From positions 1 through 43,861 of the IMG/VR virus record IMGVR_UViG_3300030329_000605: a stretch of 43,861 bases of DNA; one strand, written 5' to 3'. Each line of letters begins with the position of its first letter. Position 1 is the stretch's first letter. The stretch is from a virus (taxonomy: Duplodnaviria; Caudoviricetes). The position numbers and the translations under genes were made by a program. This document shows, one piece after another, positions 15,872 to 37,138 of this stretch. A model generated the notes under the pieces. It searched no databases and had not been told where the DNA came from. It was given only the letters and a program-made list of their open reading frames with translations.

Positions 15872-15900
15872 TTGCCTTATTCTAGACATATTTGTATAAT
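15872..15900 (+). promoter_or_regulatory. Host sigma70-type early promoter
   Basis: TTGCCT (15872-15877), 17-nt spacer, TATAAT (15895-15900); AT-rich UP-like tract upstream; precedes the early genes. Confidence 0.75.
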
Positions 15901-15917: not shown

Positions 15918-16102
15918 AGTAATTTAGATGAATAAATTATTTGTGTAGTTCATCAAGGTTCAAGTAGTCTAAATTGCTTCTCTCAGGCTCAGCAGATATA
16001 GAGCCCTACCGCCAAAAGTGATTTTGGCTACAATAAGAGGGACACCTCAACAGCGAAGCAATAGGGTTTCGGGAGCAGGTTTAGAGCTGTAGCCAGTCAG
16101 CC
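15918..16102 (+). ncRNA. Structured early leader RNA (unknown family)
   Basis: Several stems, including gccaaaa-GTGA-ttttggc, gagg-gaca-cctc, gagcccta/tagggttt and tggctaca/tgtagcca, in an ORF-free leader. Confidence 0.4.
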
Positions 16103-16175
16103 AATAAAGTAAGTTTGTTTGTATCTAGTAATTTACTAGAATTTATATAAATCAATTAATAATAGGAGTTGATAT

Positions 16176-16427
16176 ATGTTTGTATCTGATATGGTAGGCT
16201 CAAAAAATGTAAAAGTTGAGCACAACCAACAAGAGACAATATTTCAGGAAAAAGACGGCGACACTAACTATTCAATAGTTAAGGGCGTTTTTTATATTCC
16301 TGATTTAAAAGCTAAAATGAGAGCTTTTAGAGTTATGAAGCACACTAATTATTCTAAGCCGATTGTAGAATATTGCTTTGAAAAAGTTAAGGCTGAAATA
16401 GTTTTAAAAGACTTAATGAAAGCATAA
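16176..16427 (+). CDS. Early hypothetical protein
   Basis: RBS aggag; first ORF after the early promoter. Confidence 0.7.
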   Translation: MFVSDMVGSKNVKVEHNQQETIFQEKDGDTNYSIVKGVFYIPDLKAKMRAFRVMKHTNYSKPIVEYCFEKVKAEIVLKDLMKA

Positions 16428-16475
16428 ATTTTAAAAATTACGGGCTTAGGCGGTCTAGTATCGCCTGAGCTCACA

Positions 16476-16531
16476 GCTAGACTGACGAGGCTTAAAGAGC
16501 CGAAACAATTAAACTATTTATTGTCTCTAGC
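16476..16531 (+). ncRNA. Hammerhead ribozyme, type I
   Basis: Stem I GCTAGA/TCTAGC, core CTGACGA, stem II GGCT/AGCC, GAAA, stem III (A)CAAT/ATTG(T), GTC cleavage triplet at 16523-16525. Confidence 0.92.
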
Positions 16532-16576
16532 AATTATGTTAGAAAAAACAAACAAACAAAAAAAGGAGTAAACACT

Positions 16577-16954
16577 ATGCGAAGCTATCCGATATGGGTT
16601 GATACCTACAATAATAGTTATAAATCTTCTATGGCTAAGTCTCAGGGTATTAGAGACTATGCAAAAAATCAGGTTTATATAGGAACATCAGCCTCTAATA
16701 GTTATCCATTTTTAACAAATGAGTTGGAAGTTCAAGATAATGGAAATAAAAGGACTTTTAACTTTTATGTTGATAATGAGTTGATGAAATCAGCTACTTA
16801 CAACAAAAGTAAAAAAGTATTTGAAAACGCTGAGGGACTTTTAGAGCCTCAGTTAAAAGCCAAATACTTTGAAAAGTGGAAAGCTGAAGAAGAAGCAAAA
16901 GAGCAGGAGTTCAGAAATAAAAGATATGCTGAAAGGTTGGCTGTCAATGGATAA
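16577..16954 (+). CDS. Early hypothetical protein
   Basis: RBS aaggag after an (aaac)n tract; 125 aa. Confidence 0.72.
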   Translation: MRSYPIWVDTYNNSYKSSMAKSQGIRDYAKNQVYIGTSASNSYPFLTNELEVQDNGNKRTFNFYVDNELMKSATYNKSKKVFENAEGLLEPQLKAKYFEKWKAEEEAKEQEFRNKRYAERLAVNG

Positions 16955-17051
16955 TAAAACACTTGAACGAATTGCAAAAGCTCTTGAGCGTCTTATTAAA
17001 TTAGTTGAAGATGATATAAAAGGCGTTCATAGAAAAAAATCAAAAATATAA
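16947..17051 (+). CDS. Small early hypothetical protein (MDNKTLERIAKALERL...)
   Basis: ATGGATAA overlap with the previous gene; LERIA.ALE amphipathic helix. Confidence 0.55.
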   Translation: MDNKTLERIAKALERLIKLVEDDIKGVHRKKSKI

Positions 17052-17056
17052 GACCT

Positions 17057-17082
17057 AAAGCGGTTTAGAAATAGACCGCTTT
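17057..17082 (+). other. Intergenic GAAA-tetraloop hairpin (processing or stability element)
   Basis: aaagcggttta-GAAA-tagaccgcttt. Confidence 0.6.
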
Positions 17083-17131
17083 GAGACTTATATAAATAAG
17101 TCAAACAAGCAAACAATTTAACTAATAGGAG

Positions 17132-17491
17132 TTGAAAAACAAATACGAGTTAAATATAATACCTGAGACAAACAAGTATTATCCTGATTATACAAAAGAA
17201 GACTTTGTATATATTGATAGGATATACGGCGGACTAAACGGCGTTAGTAGGTTAATACAAAAGGACGGCTCAACTTATAAAGGTTATTTAAAAACTTTTA
17301 AAATAGGAGTATCAACTTTTAGTTTAACTGAAGACGGGAGATGGTTCAATGGTTCAGGTATGCCTTGCCAATGTCCAAACGGCGTTAATGAAAAGGACAA
17401 GCTGAGCTCATTGAAAGCTGAGCTGAGCCGAGTTAATGCTGAAAAGAAGTGGCAAGACTACAAGAAAAAAGTCTTCAAGAATAGGCGTTAA
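17132..17491 (+). CDS. Early hypothetical protein (start uncertain, TTG)
   Basis: 119-aa ORF; aggag lies immediately upstream. Confidence 0.6.
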   Translation: MKNKYELNIIPETNKYYPDYTKEDFVYIDRIYGGLNGVSRLIQKDGSTYKGYLKTFKIGVSTFSLTEDGRWFNGSGMPCQCPNGVNEKDKLSSLKAELSRVNAEKKWQDYKKKVFKNRR

Positions 17492-17664: not shown

Positions 17665-17699
17665 GAAATGGAGCTGAGCTTAGAGCTTGGCTCTATTTC
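17665..17699 (+). other. Intergenic long hairpin (RNase III-like or stability element)
   Basis: gaaatggagctgagc-ttaga-gcttggctctatttc. Confidence 0.6.
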
Positions 17700-18994: not shown

Positions 18995-19006
18995 TGAGCA
19001 TTTTGG

Positions 19007-19054
19007 GAGCTGAGCTGAGCTGAGCCATTAGAGCTGAGCTGAGCTGAGCCATTA
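19007..19054 (+). repeat. Perfect 2 x 24-bp tandem repeat built from GAGCT pentamers
   Basis: (gagctgagctgagctgagccatta)x2. Confidence 0.95.
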
Positions 19055-19116: not shown

Positions 19117-21576
19117 ATGGATAGTAAACAAACATTACTAGAAATAATGCCTAAATACTCAGACCAATTAAAACACGAAAAAGAAATGGCTGAGCTAGGT
19201 AAACACAGAACTAACAAAAGACGAGTCTCTCACGTTGAGCGTGAAGAGGAGTCTGTTACGAGCTATGGTAAAGTTATGGTTGCCAACACAATCAGACCTT
19301 TAGCCAATGCGATAGCTGAGTATATACAAGAGACAGCTAAGAAGACTATAGGAAAACCACCTATTGCTTTTGTTAAGATGTGCGAAGTCCCACCTGAAAT
19401 ACTTGCTCTAATCACGGGTAAGCATATAATCAATACAATTACACAATACAAACCTTTAACTGCTACTTGTATTAGTCTTGGTGGTAAGATTGAGACTGAG
19501 ATAGCTTTAAAGAATTTTAAGTTTTTAAATCCTGAGCTTTATGAAGCTGTTAAACAAGATTTAGATAAAAGGTCTTGGAATTATGTTTATAAAAGACGTA
19601 AGCTAAGAGAGAGTGCTAAGCGTGGAATAGTTAAATGGGAAGAGTGGACTACACCTGAGAAATTGCACGTTGGATTAAAACTAATTGAGATGTTAATTAT
19701 CTCAACGGGCTTAATTGAAATTGGTATGGAAACTATCAATCATAAAAAAGCTAAGATTATTAAACAGACTCATAAAACAAGAGAGTGGATTAAAAATAGA
19801 AATAGCTTTAATGAACTTTTGAATCCTGAGTATCTTCCAACAGTTTTACAACCTAAGATGTGGAGCTCAGTTGTTGGCGGTGGGTATTGGACTAAGGAAT
19901 TACCTGAGTTGGATTTAGTAAAACAAAAGAATAAACAATTTAAGAGAGAGCTTGAAAACTTTGATATGCCTGAAGTTTATAGTGCAATCAATATAATGCA
20001 AAGTACACCTTTTAAAGTTAATAAGTTTGTTTTAAGTGTTATGCAAAAGGCTTGGGATAATGGAGATGCTATTGGTGGTATGCCACCTAATAGAAATTTA
20101 GATATACCAAATAAGCCTCACGACATAGAGACAAATAAAGACTCAAGAAGAGATTGGAAGAGAAGAGCTGTTATCGCTCATACTGAAAATGCTCGTATGT
20201 TTTCTAAAAGATTATTGTATGCTAAAATAATTTGGTTAGCTCAAAAGTTTAAAGACTATGCGACATTATATTATCCTTTACAATTTGATTTTAGAGGAAG
20301 AGCTTATTGTGTCCCTGCATTTTTAAATTATCAAAGTATTGGTGGAGCTAAAGCATTACTTGTGTTTTCTAATGGTAAAGAAATAACTGAAGAGAATAGA
20401 GGTGAGTTTTGGTTAGCTGTACACGGAGCTAATATGTATGGTAATGATAAAGTGTCTTTAGAAGATAGAGTTAAATGGGTTAATGACAATGAAGAGTGGA
20501 TAGTTAATTGTGCTCAAGACCCTTTTAGACATAGAGAATGGGAAGATGCCTCAAATGCTTTTCAATTTTTGGCGTGGTGTGATGAGTGGAGAAGATACCA
20601 AGCTAGAGGAATTGGAGAAAAGTTTATATCTCATTTACCAGTTAATGTTGATGGGAGCTGTAATGGTCTTCAATTATATTCTTTAATGTTAAGAGATAGT
20701 GTTGCGGGTAAGTTAGTTAATTTACTTCCGTCAGAAAAACCTCAAGACATTTATCAATTAGTTGCTGACGCTGTTAATGAAAAGTTAAGAGTACACGCTT
20801 CAGAAGATAGACCTTATGCTCAGCAGTGGTTAGATTATGGAGTTAAGCGTTCTACTACTAAACGAAGTATTATGACAATTTGTTATGGCTCAACAAGATA
20901 CTCTTGTACGGACTTTGTAATAGAAGATTTAACCAAGAGAAAAGATAAAGGAGAGAGCCACCCTTTTGTTGATGATTTATTTAGACCCGCTTCTTATTTG
21001 GCTAGTGTCATTTGGGATAGCATTGGGGACAATTTAAAATCAGCTAGAGTTGGTATGAAGTATCTTCAGGATATAGCTAAGATTGTTTCAAAAGAACAAT
21101 TACCTATACATTGGGTTACACCAGTAGGATTTCCAGTTTATCAATCCTATCCTGAAATGAAGTCTAAAAGAGTTAAAGCTATGCTTATGGGAGAAGTTAT
21201 AAAACCCCGTATTAATGCTGAGACTGATAAGACAGATAAATTGCGTATGTCAAATGGGGTTGCTCCTAATGTGGTGCACTCGGTTGATTCTGCGGGTATG
21301 ATTAAGACTGTTAATTTTGCTCATAAAAACGGAGTTAAGAATTTCTGTAATGTGCACGACAGCTTTGGCACGACTGCGGGTGATGTAGAAATGTTAAATA
21401 AAAGTTTAAGAGAAGCCTTTATTGATATGTTTTCTAATCACGATGTATTGGCAAAGTTCAGGGAAGATGTTGAGAAACAATTACCTGATAAATTGAAGGC
21501 TAAATTACCTGAAGTCCCTCAAAAAGGTGATTTAGATATAAATAAACTGAGGGAAAGTAAGTTCTTTTTTGCGTAA
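19117..21576 (+). CDS. Single-subunit DNA-directed RNA polymerase (T7 gp1-like)
   Basis: DFRGRAY, DGSCNGLQ, RSTTKRSIMTICYG, PNVVHSVD, HDSF motifs. Confidence 0.98.
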   Translation: MDSKQTLLEIMPKYSDQLKHEKEMAELGKHRTNKRRVSHVEREEESVTSYGKVMVANTIRPLANAIAEYIQETAKKTIGKPPIAFVKMCEVPPEILALITGKHIINTITQYKPLTATCISLGGKIETEIALKNFKFLNPELYEAVKQDLDKRSWNYVYKRRKLRESAKRGIVKWEEWTTPEKLHVGLKLIEMLIISTGLIEIGMETINHKKAKIIKQTHKTREWIKNRNSFNELLNPEYLPTVLQPKMWSSVVGGGYWTKELPELDLVKQKNKQFKRELENFDMPEVYSAINIMQSTPFKVNKFVLSVMQKAWDNGDAIGGMPPNRNLDIPNKPHDIETNKDSRRDWKRRAVIAHTENARMFSKRLLYAKIIWLAQKFKDYATLYYPLQFDFRGRAYCVPAFLNYQSIGGAKALLVFSNGKEITEENRGEFWLAVHGANMYGNDKVSLEDRVKWVNDNEEWIVNCAQDPFRHREWEDASNAFQFLAWCDEWRRYQARGIGEKFISHLPVNVDGSCNGLQLYSLMLRDSVAGKLVNLLPSEKPQDIYQLVADAVNEKLRVHASEDRPYAQQWLDYGVKRSTTKRSIMTICYGSTRYSCTDFVIEDLTKRKDKGESHPFVDDLFRPASYLASVIWDSIGDNLKSARVGMKYLQDIAKIVSKEQLPIHWVTPVGFPVYQSYPEMKSKRVKAMLMGEVIKPRINAETDKTDKLRMSNGVAPNVVHSVDSAGMIKTVNFAHKNGVKNFCNVHDSFGTTAGDVEMLNKSLREAFIDMFSNHDVLAKFREDVEKQLPDKLKAKLPEVPQKGDLDINKLRESKFFFA

Positions 21577-28451: not shown

Positions 28452-28732
28452 AAGAACCACCTCACTATTTTAGATTTAAGATAGAACCTATTACCTTTAT
28501 TATGCAGAATGAAATTCCGTATGCTGAAGGTAATGCTATTAAATATTTATGTCGTTGGCGTTTTAAACATAAAACTAAAGAGGCACAAATAGAAGACTTA
28601 AAGAAAGCAAAACAGTACATTGATTTAATACTAGAACACGAAGAGAATAAATCAGATGACACAGTGAAACTTAAACTTGGTAAAGAATCTTGGGTAGAAG
28701 GATATAGAAAGTGGAAAAAAGGTAAGCCGTGA
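28436..28732 (+). CDS. DUF3310 family protein (T7 gp1.7-like nucleotide kinase)
   Basis: V..P.HY..IE.I..GNAIKY..R..K..EDLKKA..Y. Confidence 0.85.
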   Translation: MADKVKEPPHYFRFKIEPITFIMQNEIPYAEGNAIKYLCRWRFKHKTKEAQIEDLKKAKQYIDLILEHEENKSDDTVKLKLGKESWVEGYRKWKKGKP

Positions 28733-29100
28733 TAAAGCACAATCATATAATTATCAAAGCACAAATTAATAAACCACCTAAAGATATTCGTTTTATTAGA
28801 AAATGGATAAAGAAATTAATTAATGCAATAGGTATGAAAAGATTAGGACAACCTAATGCACATTATGTTAATGACAAAGGGAATAGAGGACTAACTTGTC
28901 TTGCTGTTCTTAGTACATCACACATCGCTTTACATACTTGGGACGAAGTGTCCCCTGCATTATTACAATTAGATGTTTATTCGTGTAGTGATTTAGATAA
29001 AAAAATTGTGTTCAAACACATAGAACAGTTTGAACCGAAGGAGATAGATTATGTTACGATTGACAGGGATAAAGCTCTTTATATTAATAATCCTTCTTAA
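28729..29100 (+). CDS. speD: Pyruvoyl-dependent AdoMetDC/SpeD-family decarboxylase proenzyme
   Basis: GLT..VLSTSHIALHTWDE..QLDVYSC motif. Confidence 0.85.
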   Translation: MIKHNHIIIKAQINKPPKDIRFIRKWIKKLINAIGMKRLGQPNAHYVNDKGNRGLTCLAVLSTSHIALHTWDEVSPALLQLDVYSCSDLDKKIVFKHIEQFEPKEIDYVTIDRDKALYINNPS

Positions 29101-36689: not shown

Positions 36690-36745
36690 TCAAGATATGC
36701 CTAGTGGGTATCTTGATTAACTCGCCTAAGAAAGGGGGAAATATG
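36690..36745 (+). promoter_or_regulatory. ROSE-like RNA thermometer leader of hsp20
   Basis: Hairpin tcaagatat(g)cc-tagt-gggtatcttga, then CTC(G)CCT pairing with the SD AGGGGG with a bulged G. Confidence 0.6.
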
Positions 36746-37138
36746 ACACTAGACTTAACACCATTCCGAGCTTTTTCGGTAGGTTTTGATGACCTATTTG
36801 ATGAGCTTAGAAGTTTTAAGACAGTTGGTTATCCGCCATATAACATTGAAAGAATGTCAGATGGTTTGTATAACATTTCAATGGCTGTTGCAGGGTTTTC
36901 AAAAGATGACCTTACAATTTCTGTCAAAGAAAATGTCTTAAAAGTAAAAGGAAAGAAAGAAAGTAAAGAGAAAGATTATCTTTACAAAGGTATTGGTGAA
37001 AGGTCTTTTGAACAATCATTTAAACTTGCGGAATTTACGGAAGTAAAAGAAGTTAAGTTAGAAGATGGTGTTCTAAACATTTCTTTGATTCAGAATTTAC
37101 CTGAAGATAAGAAAGAAAAGACAATCAAAATATCTTAA
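36743..37138 (+). CDS. hsp20: Small heat-shock protein Hsp20 (IbpA-like)
   Basis: VGFD.LF..YPPYNI..AVAGF..YLYKGI..RSF..F.LA..L.DGVL.I.L...PE. Confidence 0.95.
   Translation: MTLDLTPFRAFSVGFDDLFDELRSFKTVGYPPYNIERMSDGLYNISMAVAGFSKDDLTISVKENVLKVKGKKESKEKDYLYKGIGERSFEQSFKLAEFTEVKEVKLEDGVLNISLIQNLPEDKKEKTIKIS

Follow-up and report, generated by a model that had tools for sequence, protein, structure and literature searches.

The window analysed here, meaning the whole stretch of 43,861 bases, is a complete-looking virus record with T7-type gene order. Its early region extends from about 15900 to the gene for a T7-type RNA polymerase (19117-21576, plus strand), which was 79.6% identical to that of pelagiphage EXVC025P. 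The identity was 79-80% across EXVC025P, HTVC168P, HTVC142P and HTVC031P, and 69% with HTVC019P. On the basis of this polymerase the genome is, by its sequence, an HTVC019P-type pelagiphage, which bears out the label 'T7-like' given in an earlier note on this DNA, and the host was taken to be Pelagibacter because the polymerase resembles those of pelagiphages. The first two early genes, gene 1 (16176-16427, plus strand, 83 aa) and gene 2 (16577-16954, plus strand, 125 aa), belong to no known PHROG or Pfam family; an Atlas search returned unnamed viral clusters only for gene 1 and nothing for gene 2, and an alignment of the two proteins was uninformative. Before gene 1 there is a structured leader (15975-16110) common to HTVC105P, HTVC121P and several contigs; it is swapped for unrelated structured leaders in close relatives and had no Rfam match. 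Upstream of it, positions 15872-15900 on the plus strand match the sigma-70 consensus at 10/12 bases. However, this match alone is not significant, as 12 sigma-70-like sites were found against 13.5 expected.

Between genes 1 and 2 lies a type I hammerhead ribozyme motif (16476-16531, plus strand). In stem I, GCUAGA (16476-81) pairs with UCUAGC (16526-31). The core CUGACGA (16482-88) is followed by stem II, GGCU (16489-92) with AGCC (16498-501), by GAAA (16502-05) and by stem III, ACAAU (16505-09) with AUUGU (16520-24). The core consensus CUGANGA, the GAAA and U16.1-H17 were thus all present, and the open stem I with loop-closed stems II and III is the type I layout. The GUC triplet (16523-25) predicts a cut after C16525, 51 nt before the start codon of gene 2 at 16577. 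The earlier note had described this core, its stems and its triplet on the sense strand between early genes 1 and 2, about 50 nt before a start codon, and every element was found in its place. A structural scan of both strands of the genome gave 16476-16531 as the only hammerhead match. In dinucleotide-shuffled strands, stems of 6/4/4 pairs were reached in 0/3,000 and stems of 4/3/3 pairs in 4/3,000. The Infernal search with Rfam hammerhead models, proposed earlier as a check, turned out negative at the gathering score: no hammerhead was returned for the genome or the early region at gathering and E-value thresholds, and no ribozyme reached the gathering score at 13 relative loci. A 161-nt query gave weak matches only, to RAGATH-1-hammerhead (22 bits, E 0.087) and Hammerhead_3 (16.3 bits, E 0.45).

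A metagenome scan with a pattern made of the hairpin end, the stem I 5' strand and CUGANGA gave 31 matches, and the full ribozyme was found in 29 of them, including stem II, GAAA, stem III, the UH and the stem I 3' strand, though these lay outside the search pattern. One of the two remaining sequences was a chance match (L107) and the other had lost the 3' half (L106). Both were left out of alignment A1, together with duplicates and insertion variants (L019 group, L110, L115 group, L092 group and L124). In the 24 compact orthologs, 98.7% of cells pair and both-sided changes occurred in 21 cells, against 4.9 after shuffling (0/500 shuffles) and at most 5 with slid partners, counts that are not a probability because the ortholog sequences are related. 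These compensatory changes fell in stems II and III. Two stem II pairs were G-C in 18, C-G in 5 and A-U in 1, and C-G in 18 and G-C in 6, respectively, and a stem III pair was A-U in 19 and U-A in 3. Stem I was invariant, its 5' strand having been part of the search pattern, and so was the core apart from N7 and H17 (CUGANGA was likewise in the pattern). The cut triplet was GUC or GUA only. All 24 orthologs have U at position 1 and A at position 4 of loop II, as well as an A and a UA in the tail that follows stem I, and no conserved Watson-Crick pseudoknot between loop II and the stem I periphery was seen by eye. The conservation and covariation at the same locus in relatives, which had also been suggested as a check, were therefore found.

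The fold survives in the insertion variants, whose extra sequence is one U or one to two hairpins following A9, or some 110 nt within stem III. In the L019 group, L110, the L115 group and L230, one or two hairpins (26-34 nt) separate A9 from stem II, the core and stems being otherwise intact. L092 (3682-4000), L124 and L131 carry two additions of about 110 nt each, one in stem III and, beyond it, a structured one ahead of the gene 2 spacer. As a control, we took 40 viral matches to the 5' half-pattern. The matching 3' half was present in only nine, of which eight were orthologs of the same locus and one was another phage with the same product hairpin. L171, a viral contig of 38,258 bases from a different phage, has two type I hammerheads on its minus strand near 1225 and 1790, one of them with the window's stem I and product hairpin.

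Judged from these comparisons, the motif at 16476-16531 is a genuine, conserved and covarying type I hammerhead. The failure to reach Rfam gathering scores could speak for a chance match, but the shuffled strands, the conservation with covariation and the concentration of complete half-pattern matches at this one locus leave that reading practically no room. A more serious objection is that the motif may be slow or inactive in its native context, where the flanking hairpins and a misfold of the core would outcompete the active fold. In ViennaRNA predictions for the 56-mer, the lowest-energy fold was a misfold lying 2.9 kcal/mol below the hammerhead fold. The local stem III is weak in the window's clade (2-7 bp, AU-rich). 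In equilibrium folds of uncut RNA from 23 orthologs, stem I had a median P of 0.01 and the 3' hairpin one of 0.83, and the 26-34 nt between A9 and stem II in several orthologs point the same way. However, ViennaRNA ignores tertiary contacts and folding order, and the invariant core, the covarying stems and the restriction of the triplet to GUC or GUA imply selection on catalysis, so we consider inactivity quite improbable. Since the uncut folds barely form stem I, cutting must be co-transcriptional or use tertiary contacts outside the model. Taken together, the conserved motif probably cuts the early transcript after C16525. RNA evidence consisted of contigs with small shares only (8 runs compared of 16), none of which bridged or marked the cut site; one contig covers 16345-16532, only 7 bases beyond the predicted cut.

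The ribozyme is flanked by two hairpins which, like the upstream half-site described below, were absent from the earlier note. A 13-bp hairpin (16442-16472, plus strand) stands just past the gene 1 stop; its stem is kept, its loop is variable, and one of its pairs shows a both-sided change (G-C in 15, A-U in 6). This hairpin, seen in a predicted fold, would stay near the 3' end of the upstream piece after cutting, and it likely guards the 3' side of that fragment. We also considered a conserved switch in which the loop of this hairpin (16453-59) forms a pseudoknot with stem I; the pairing is possible in the window and the loop differs in many orthologs, so the candidate was rejected. On the other side, a hairpin at 16526-16543 (plus strand) is predicted to form the very 5' end of the downstream product and competes with stem I. 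Five of its six pairs were kept in 24/24 orthologs, with one-sided changes only, and the product starts with this hairpin after 0-1 unpaired bases. Of 31 distinct type I product starts, 25 could fold a 5'-flush hairpin of at least 5 bp, whereas shuffling gave 7.7 on average and 16 at most, but these rows are related and the specificity is modest. When stem I strands were exchanged between families, hairpins still formed in 67/142 cases, a weak control because stem I sequences are alike. In type II and III hammerheads, stem I itself is the closed 5' hairpin of the downstream product. Type I products can fold the same kind of end, since a sequence closely resembling the stem I 5' strand usually lies just after the stem I 3' strand. 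Next comes 16544-16576 (plus strand), comprising an A/C-rich spacer (ACAAACAAAC at 16548-57), which recurs in orthologs, and the Shine-Dalgarno GGAG of gene 2 (16565-68).

One gene upstream, positions 16113-16129 (plus strand) resemble half of a hammerhead, namely a substrate-type strand. It consists of a 10-nt U-rich strand ending in GU, A16123 at the cleavage position and then UCUAGU, which is complementary to the stem I 5' strand. This strand pairs in register with the downstream core, with 6/6 pairs in stem I and 9/10 in stem III, the latter between 16113-16122 and the stem III arm with the conserved part of loop III (16505-16514, plus strand). It was the best-scoring substrate genome-wide, ahead of the local one. 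Such a distant strand, complementary to both arms in register and with an NUH, is one feature of split hammerheads. By complementarity alone, the half-site was present in 23/23 ortholog groups with at least 400 nt of upstream sequence, 306-524 nt before the core. It was not seen in L113, L121 and L132, whose 316-360 nt of upstream sequence may be too short. A reverse search with the upstream pattern gave 17 viral matches, of which 14 had the core downstream, two ended too soon and one was unrelated; L230 was found by the upstream pattern alone and also has the core. Positions -10 to -5, which the search did not fix, were 92-100% conserved against 29-62% just upstream, the conservation beginning sharply at position -11. 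The cut base was A in 16/24 and C in 8/24, never G or U. Furthermore, in the leader comparison the block before gene 1 was fixed while the leader upstream of it was replaced. In sister phages the position of the half-site is occupied, after the same leader, by an intact type III hammerhead, and the local hairpin that follows the half-site (16124-16140, plus strand) corresponds to stem I of that ribozyme.

What this upstream strand does can be read in two ways. In addition to the local cut, the same core may engage 16113-16129, forming a split type III hammerhead whose loop I contains gene 1, and cut after A16123. This would free gene 1 on a 402-nt RNA bearing a 5'-OH and a cyclic phosphate, ends that the core could in principle ligate into a circle. 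We put this forward tentatively and think it somewhat unlikely. The superior score and pairing of the upstream strand, its presence in every group with enough upstream sequence, the discovery of the L230 core from the upstream pattern, the conservation of positions -10 to -5, the restriction of the cut base to A or C and the intact type III hammerhead of sister phages at the same place all agree with it. The arm was bound more strongly by the upstream than by the local strand in 20/23 orthologs, the window's 5' product formed the long-range stem III unforced with P 0.73 at 37 C (stem III only), and L106 keeps the core, the arm and the upstream site without the local site. However, L106 is a single contig whose arrangement was not found again in viral contigs. 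The unforced long-range stem III exceeded P 0.5 in only 3/24 orthologs at 15 C and 1/24 at 37 C, and forcing the upstream hammerhead cost a median of 8.3 kcal/mol against 3.5 for the local one. In addition, the upstream stem I strand stayed in its own hairpin in 22/23, the upstream strand preferred the gene 2 spacer to the arm in 21/23, and no both-sided change was seen between the upstream strand and the arm. Two further points count against it: RtcB was found in 0/41 Pelagibacter genomes, which led us to reject RtcB-assisted circularisation, and the unit length varies modulo 3, which led us to reject rolling-circle translation of a gene 1 circle.

Alternatively, and with a probability that we put not far below even, the upstream strand is uncut: it would descend from the left half of an ancestral type III hammerhead and have been retained for a long-range pairing that masks the gene 2 spacer until the local cut, or only as a leader hairpin. 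The orthologous intact type III ribozymes explain the half-site sequence by descent. Pairing of the upstream strand with the gene 2 spacer amounted to -9.9 to -12.1 kcal/mol in 21/23, exceeded P 0.5 in 18/23 uncut RNAs, and showed one both-sided change, in L119. However, that is the only compensatory event, and the complementarity is partly generic, since A/C-rich spacers precede most early genes. Descent with masking also leaves unexplained why the cut base is A or C only and why the hairpin has gone on matching the stem I strand of the core when stem I of type III ribozymes is free to vary. We also rejected the idea that the upstream strand activates the ribozyme by removing the 3' hairpin: stem I formed no less when this strand was scrambled, and its UCUAG was paired downstream in 0/23.

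The local cut most likely serves to process the polycistronic early RNA. The ribozyme would cut the early transcript co-transcriptionally, soon after synthesis, whereupon positions 16526-16543 of the downstream piece would rearrange into a hairpin that begins right at the 5'-OH end; this would release the product from the core and hinder re-ligation. Gene 2 onward would thereby gain a 5' end that is poor for RNase E (no monophosphate) and for RNase J (no single-stranded entry), and the cut would undo the pairing predicted between the leader strand 16113-22 and the A/C-rich gene 2 spacer, leaving the spacer free. Whichever of the three permutations of the ribozyme is present, the product begins alike, with a 5'-OH, a flush hairpin, an A/C spacer and a ribosome-binding site, which points to one testable function. 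The idea in the earlier note that a phage might split its early transcript without host enzymes stood in part. Processing was retained, but the idea is not new (Perreault, 2011), and RNase III was found in 33/41 Pelagibacter genomes. A host lacking RNase III was thus rejected as an explanation; as Pelagibacter encodes RNase III, the phage ribozyme is no substitute for a missing enzyme.

The other host nucleases bear on the stability of the product. RNase E/G was found in 40/41 Pelagibacter genomes, and RNase E is described as short in Pelagibacterales (accessible text of PMC5436854). RNase J was found in 33/41 genomes by E-value, of which 14 were over the cut-off, and RNase J1 degrades the 5'-OH product of glmS (accessible text of PMC3997798). 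The proposal that a 5'-OH end resists 5' decay therefore had to be dropped: the 5'-OH alone gives no protection, because the host group encodes RNase J, a degrader of such a product. Protection, if any, likely comes from the conserved hairpin modelled flush with the new 5' end. In B. subtilis, mRNA is made more stable against decay from the 5' end by a 5' hairpin (PMC3997798, in part). The glmS case also suggests the opposite outcome, namely that the cut destabilises the downstream RNA, with RNase J entering at the 5'-OH and switching the early genes off. Like glmS (PMC3997798, in part), the phage motif would cleave itself ahead of an ORF and give the downstream RNA a 5'-OH end in a host that encodes RNase J, but it has no ligand-binding fold. 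The RNase J homologues and the fate of the glmS product favour this analogy. However, the phage product starts with a conserved hairpin that should hinder 5' entry, so the effect is expected to be opposite to that in glmS, and the same product end arises from all three ribozyme types. We consider destabilisation unlikely, and processing with a hairpin-protected end is our preferred reading.

Hammerheads are widespread in related phages. In cultured pelagiphages, 11 of 14 early regions carry one to three of them, with types I, II and III all represented, and no hammerhead was found in the early regions of the other three; none of these records annotates a hammerhead. In seven whole genomes, all 11 hammerheads were on the coding strand between the terminase and RNA polymerase genes, against 0.017 hammerheads per shuffled genome in the same relaxed scan. 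Over the fetched loci, 113 distinct sequences were collected (55 type I, 22 type II and 36 type III), a tally that is no frequency, the loci having been gathered partly with hammerhead patterns. HTVC031P, HTVC109P and EXVC025P have at least two complete ribozymes flanking genes, and the HTVC121P ribozyme has a long loop II. No ribozyme was found directly upstream of the gene 2 homologues in L062, L090 and L094. Because of these homologues and the three cultured phages without any hammerhead, the ribozyme appears dispensable in relatives.

The arrangement may be compared with several known systems. The early RNA of T7 is cut at RNase III sites between early genes; the present motif likewise lies between early genes, but would cleave itself rather than be cleaved by the host. 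RiboJ is an engineered ribozyme insulator in which a ribozyme is followed by a hairpin, a spacer and a ribosome-binding site, an order that the phage shows in natural form; the phage motif would act as a natural insulator of this sort and fill the role of the T7 RNase III sites. The best Rfam match, RAGATH-1-hammerhead (RF03152), also has a hairpin 5' of the core, and in that family the loop of the upstream hairpin has a conserved pairing with the ribozyme. The window differs from it in scoring 22 bits against a cut-off of 56.3, in a stem II with four covarying pairs and in an upstream loop whose complementarity is not conserved, the loop differing among orthologs. Hammerheads between phage genes are a kind known since 2011, when clustered type I-III hammerheads flanking prophage genes were described, with cleavage in vitro and in E. 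coli and with examples from Agrobacterium tumefaciens, Azorhizobium caulinodans and Clostridium scindens as well as PaP3/LUZ24 and halovirus HF1/HF2 (Perreault, 2011; PMC3088659). In the accessible text of the same study, processing of long transcripts into single-gene mRNAs was proposed, and spliced or circular products were looked for and not found. The pelagiphage hammerheads are similar in that types I, II and III occur between phage genes, intergenic and on the sense strand of a polycistronic region, with similar neighbours in relatives (marR and an integrase in HTVC019P; ardA in EXVC014P). However, the window is from a SAR11 phage, has one complete core and no integrase among 59 ORFs scanned, and carries a conserved second substrate strand one gene upstream, which is new here. 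'Pelagibacter' does not appear in the readable supplements of that study, and some relatives may be among its 860 environmental type I entries.

Split hammerheads have been described in the 3' UTRs of rodent lectin mRNAs (Martick, 2008, via PMC2920678 and PMC6765202, each in part). Their substrate and enzyme segments are also hundreds of bases apart in one transcript, but in the phage an entire gene separates the two, a local substrate is available to the core as well, and the distant cut is putative. No report of a pelagiphage hammerhead was found in the literature searched, most subscription papers lying outside its reach, and no two-site or gene-spanning phage hammerhead was found there by title or the start of the abstract. 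The accessible parts of PMC10085705 and PMC13725137 contained nothing bearing on DNA phage operons. The function of hammerheads was called unresolved in the accessible text of Weinberg (2019; PMC6765202). Pelagiphages offer a tractable case, as cultured phage-host pairs carry hammerheads (11/14 records), and an infection RNA-seq set exists for HTVC022P, a phage with a type I motif (PMC12753301, in part). If the half-site is cut by the same core, gene-containing split hammerheads would be a form missed by compact-motif searches and a route to single-gene or circular phage mRNAs, and a DNA phage of the most abundant bacteria in the ocean would carry a naturally occurring cis ribozyme with two sites. 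If it is not cut, the locus would be a sound new example of the 2011 observation.

Several other features were observed in the window and its relatives. In HTVC105P (L099, about 480-630 and 1990-2060), in which no hammerhead was found, the leader ends in a long imperfect stem of about 22 bp by eye, which looks as expected of an RNase III substrate. A full tRNA gene is present in the early region of a relative (L054, 1442-1512), and partial tRNA matches occur at L060 4767-4822 and L068 6813-6900; these are possibly attachment sites. In the window, 17105-17188 is a stretch common to many strains and seen in contigs of all 8 RNA runs compared. It includes the best sigma-70 match of the early region (17132-17160, 11/12), and the TTG-started ORF at 17132-17491 may therefore start elsewhere. 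Short repeated GAGCT-type units form clusters ahead of the RNA polymerase gene and in two further gaps of the early region (17400-17430, 17670-17690 and 19005-19050), and are possible candidates for protein-binding sites. Further downstream, the replication module contains an S-adenosylmethionine decarboxylase-like gene (28729-29100), and an Hsp20 gene (36704-37138) lies between the capsid and tail genes. A second conserved intergenic RNA module is found at 17051-17103, where a 12-bp hairpin is followed immediately by a shorter AU-rich hairpin and then the A/C spacer. The same two-hairpin module occurs in HTVC019P at 1494-1578 and 1832-1924 (L095) and in HTVC105P, HTVC121P, HTVC120P and HTVC021P. 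Its first hairpin resembles the one upstream of the ribozyme, and the module is possibly a processing or stabilising element without a hammerhead core.
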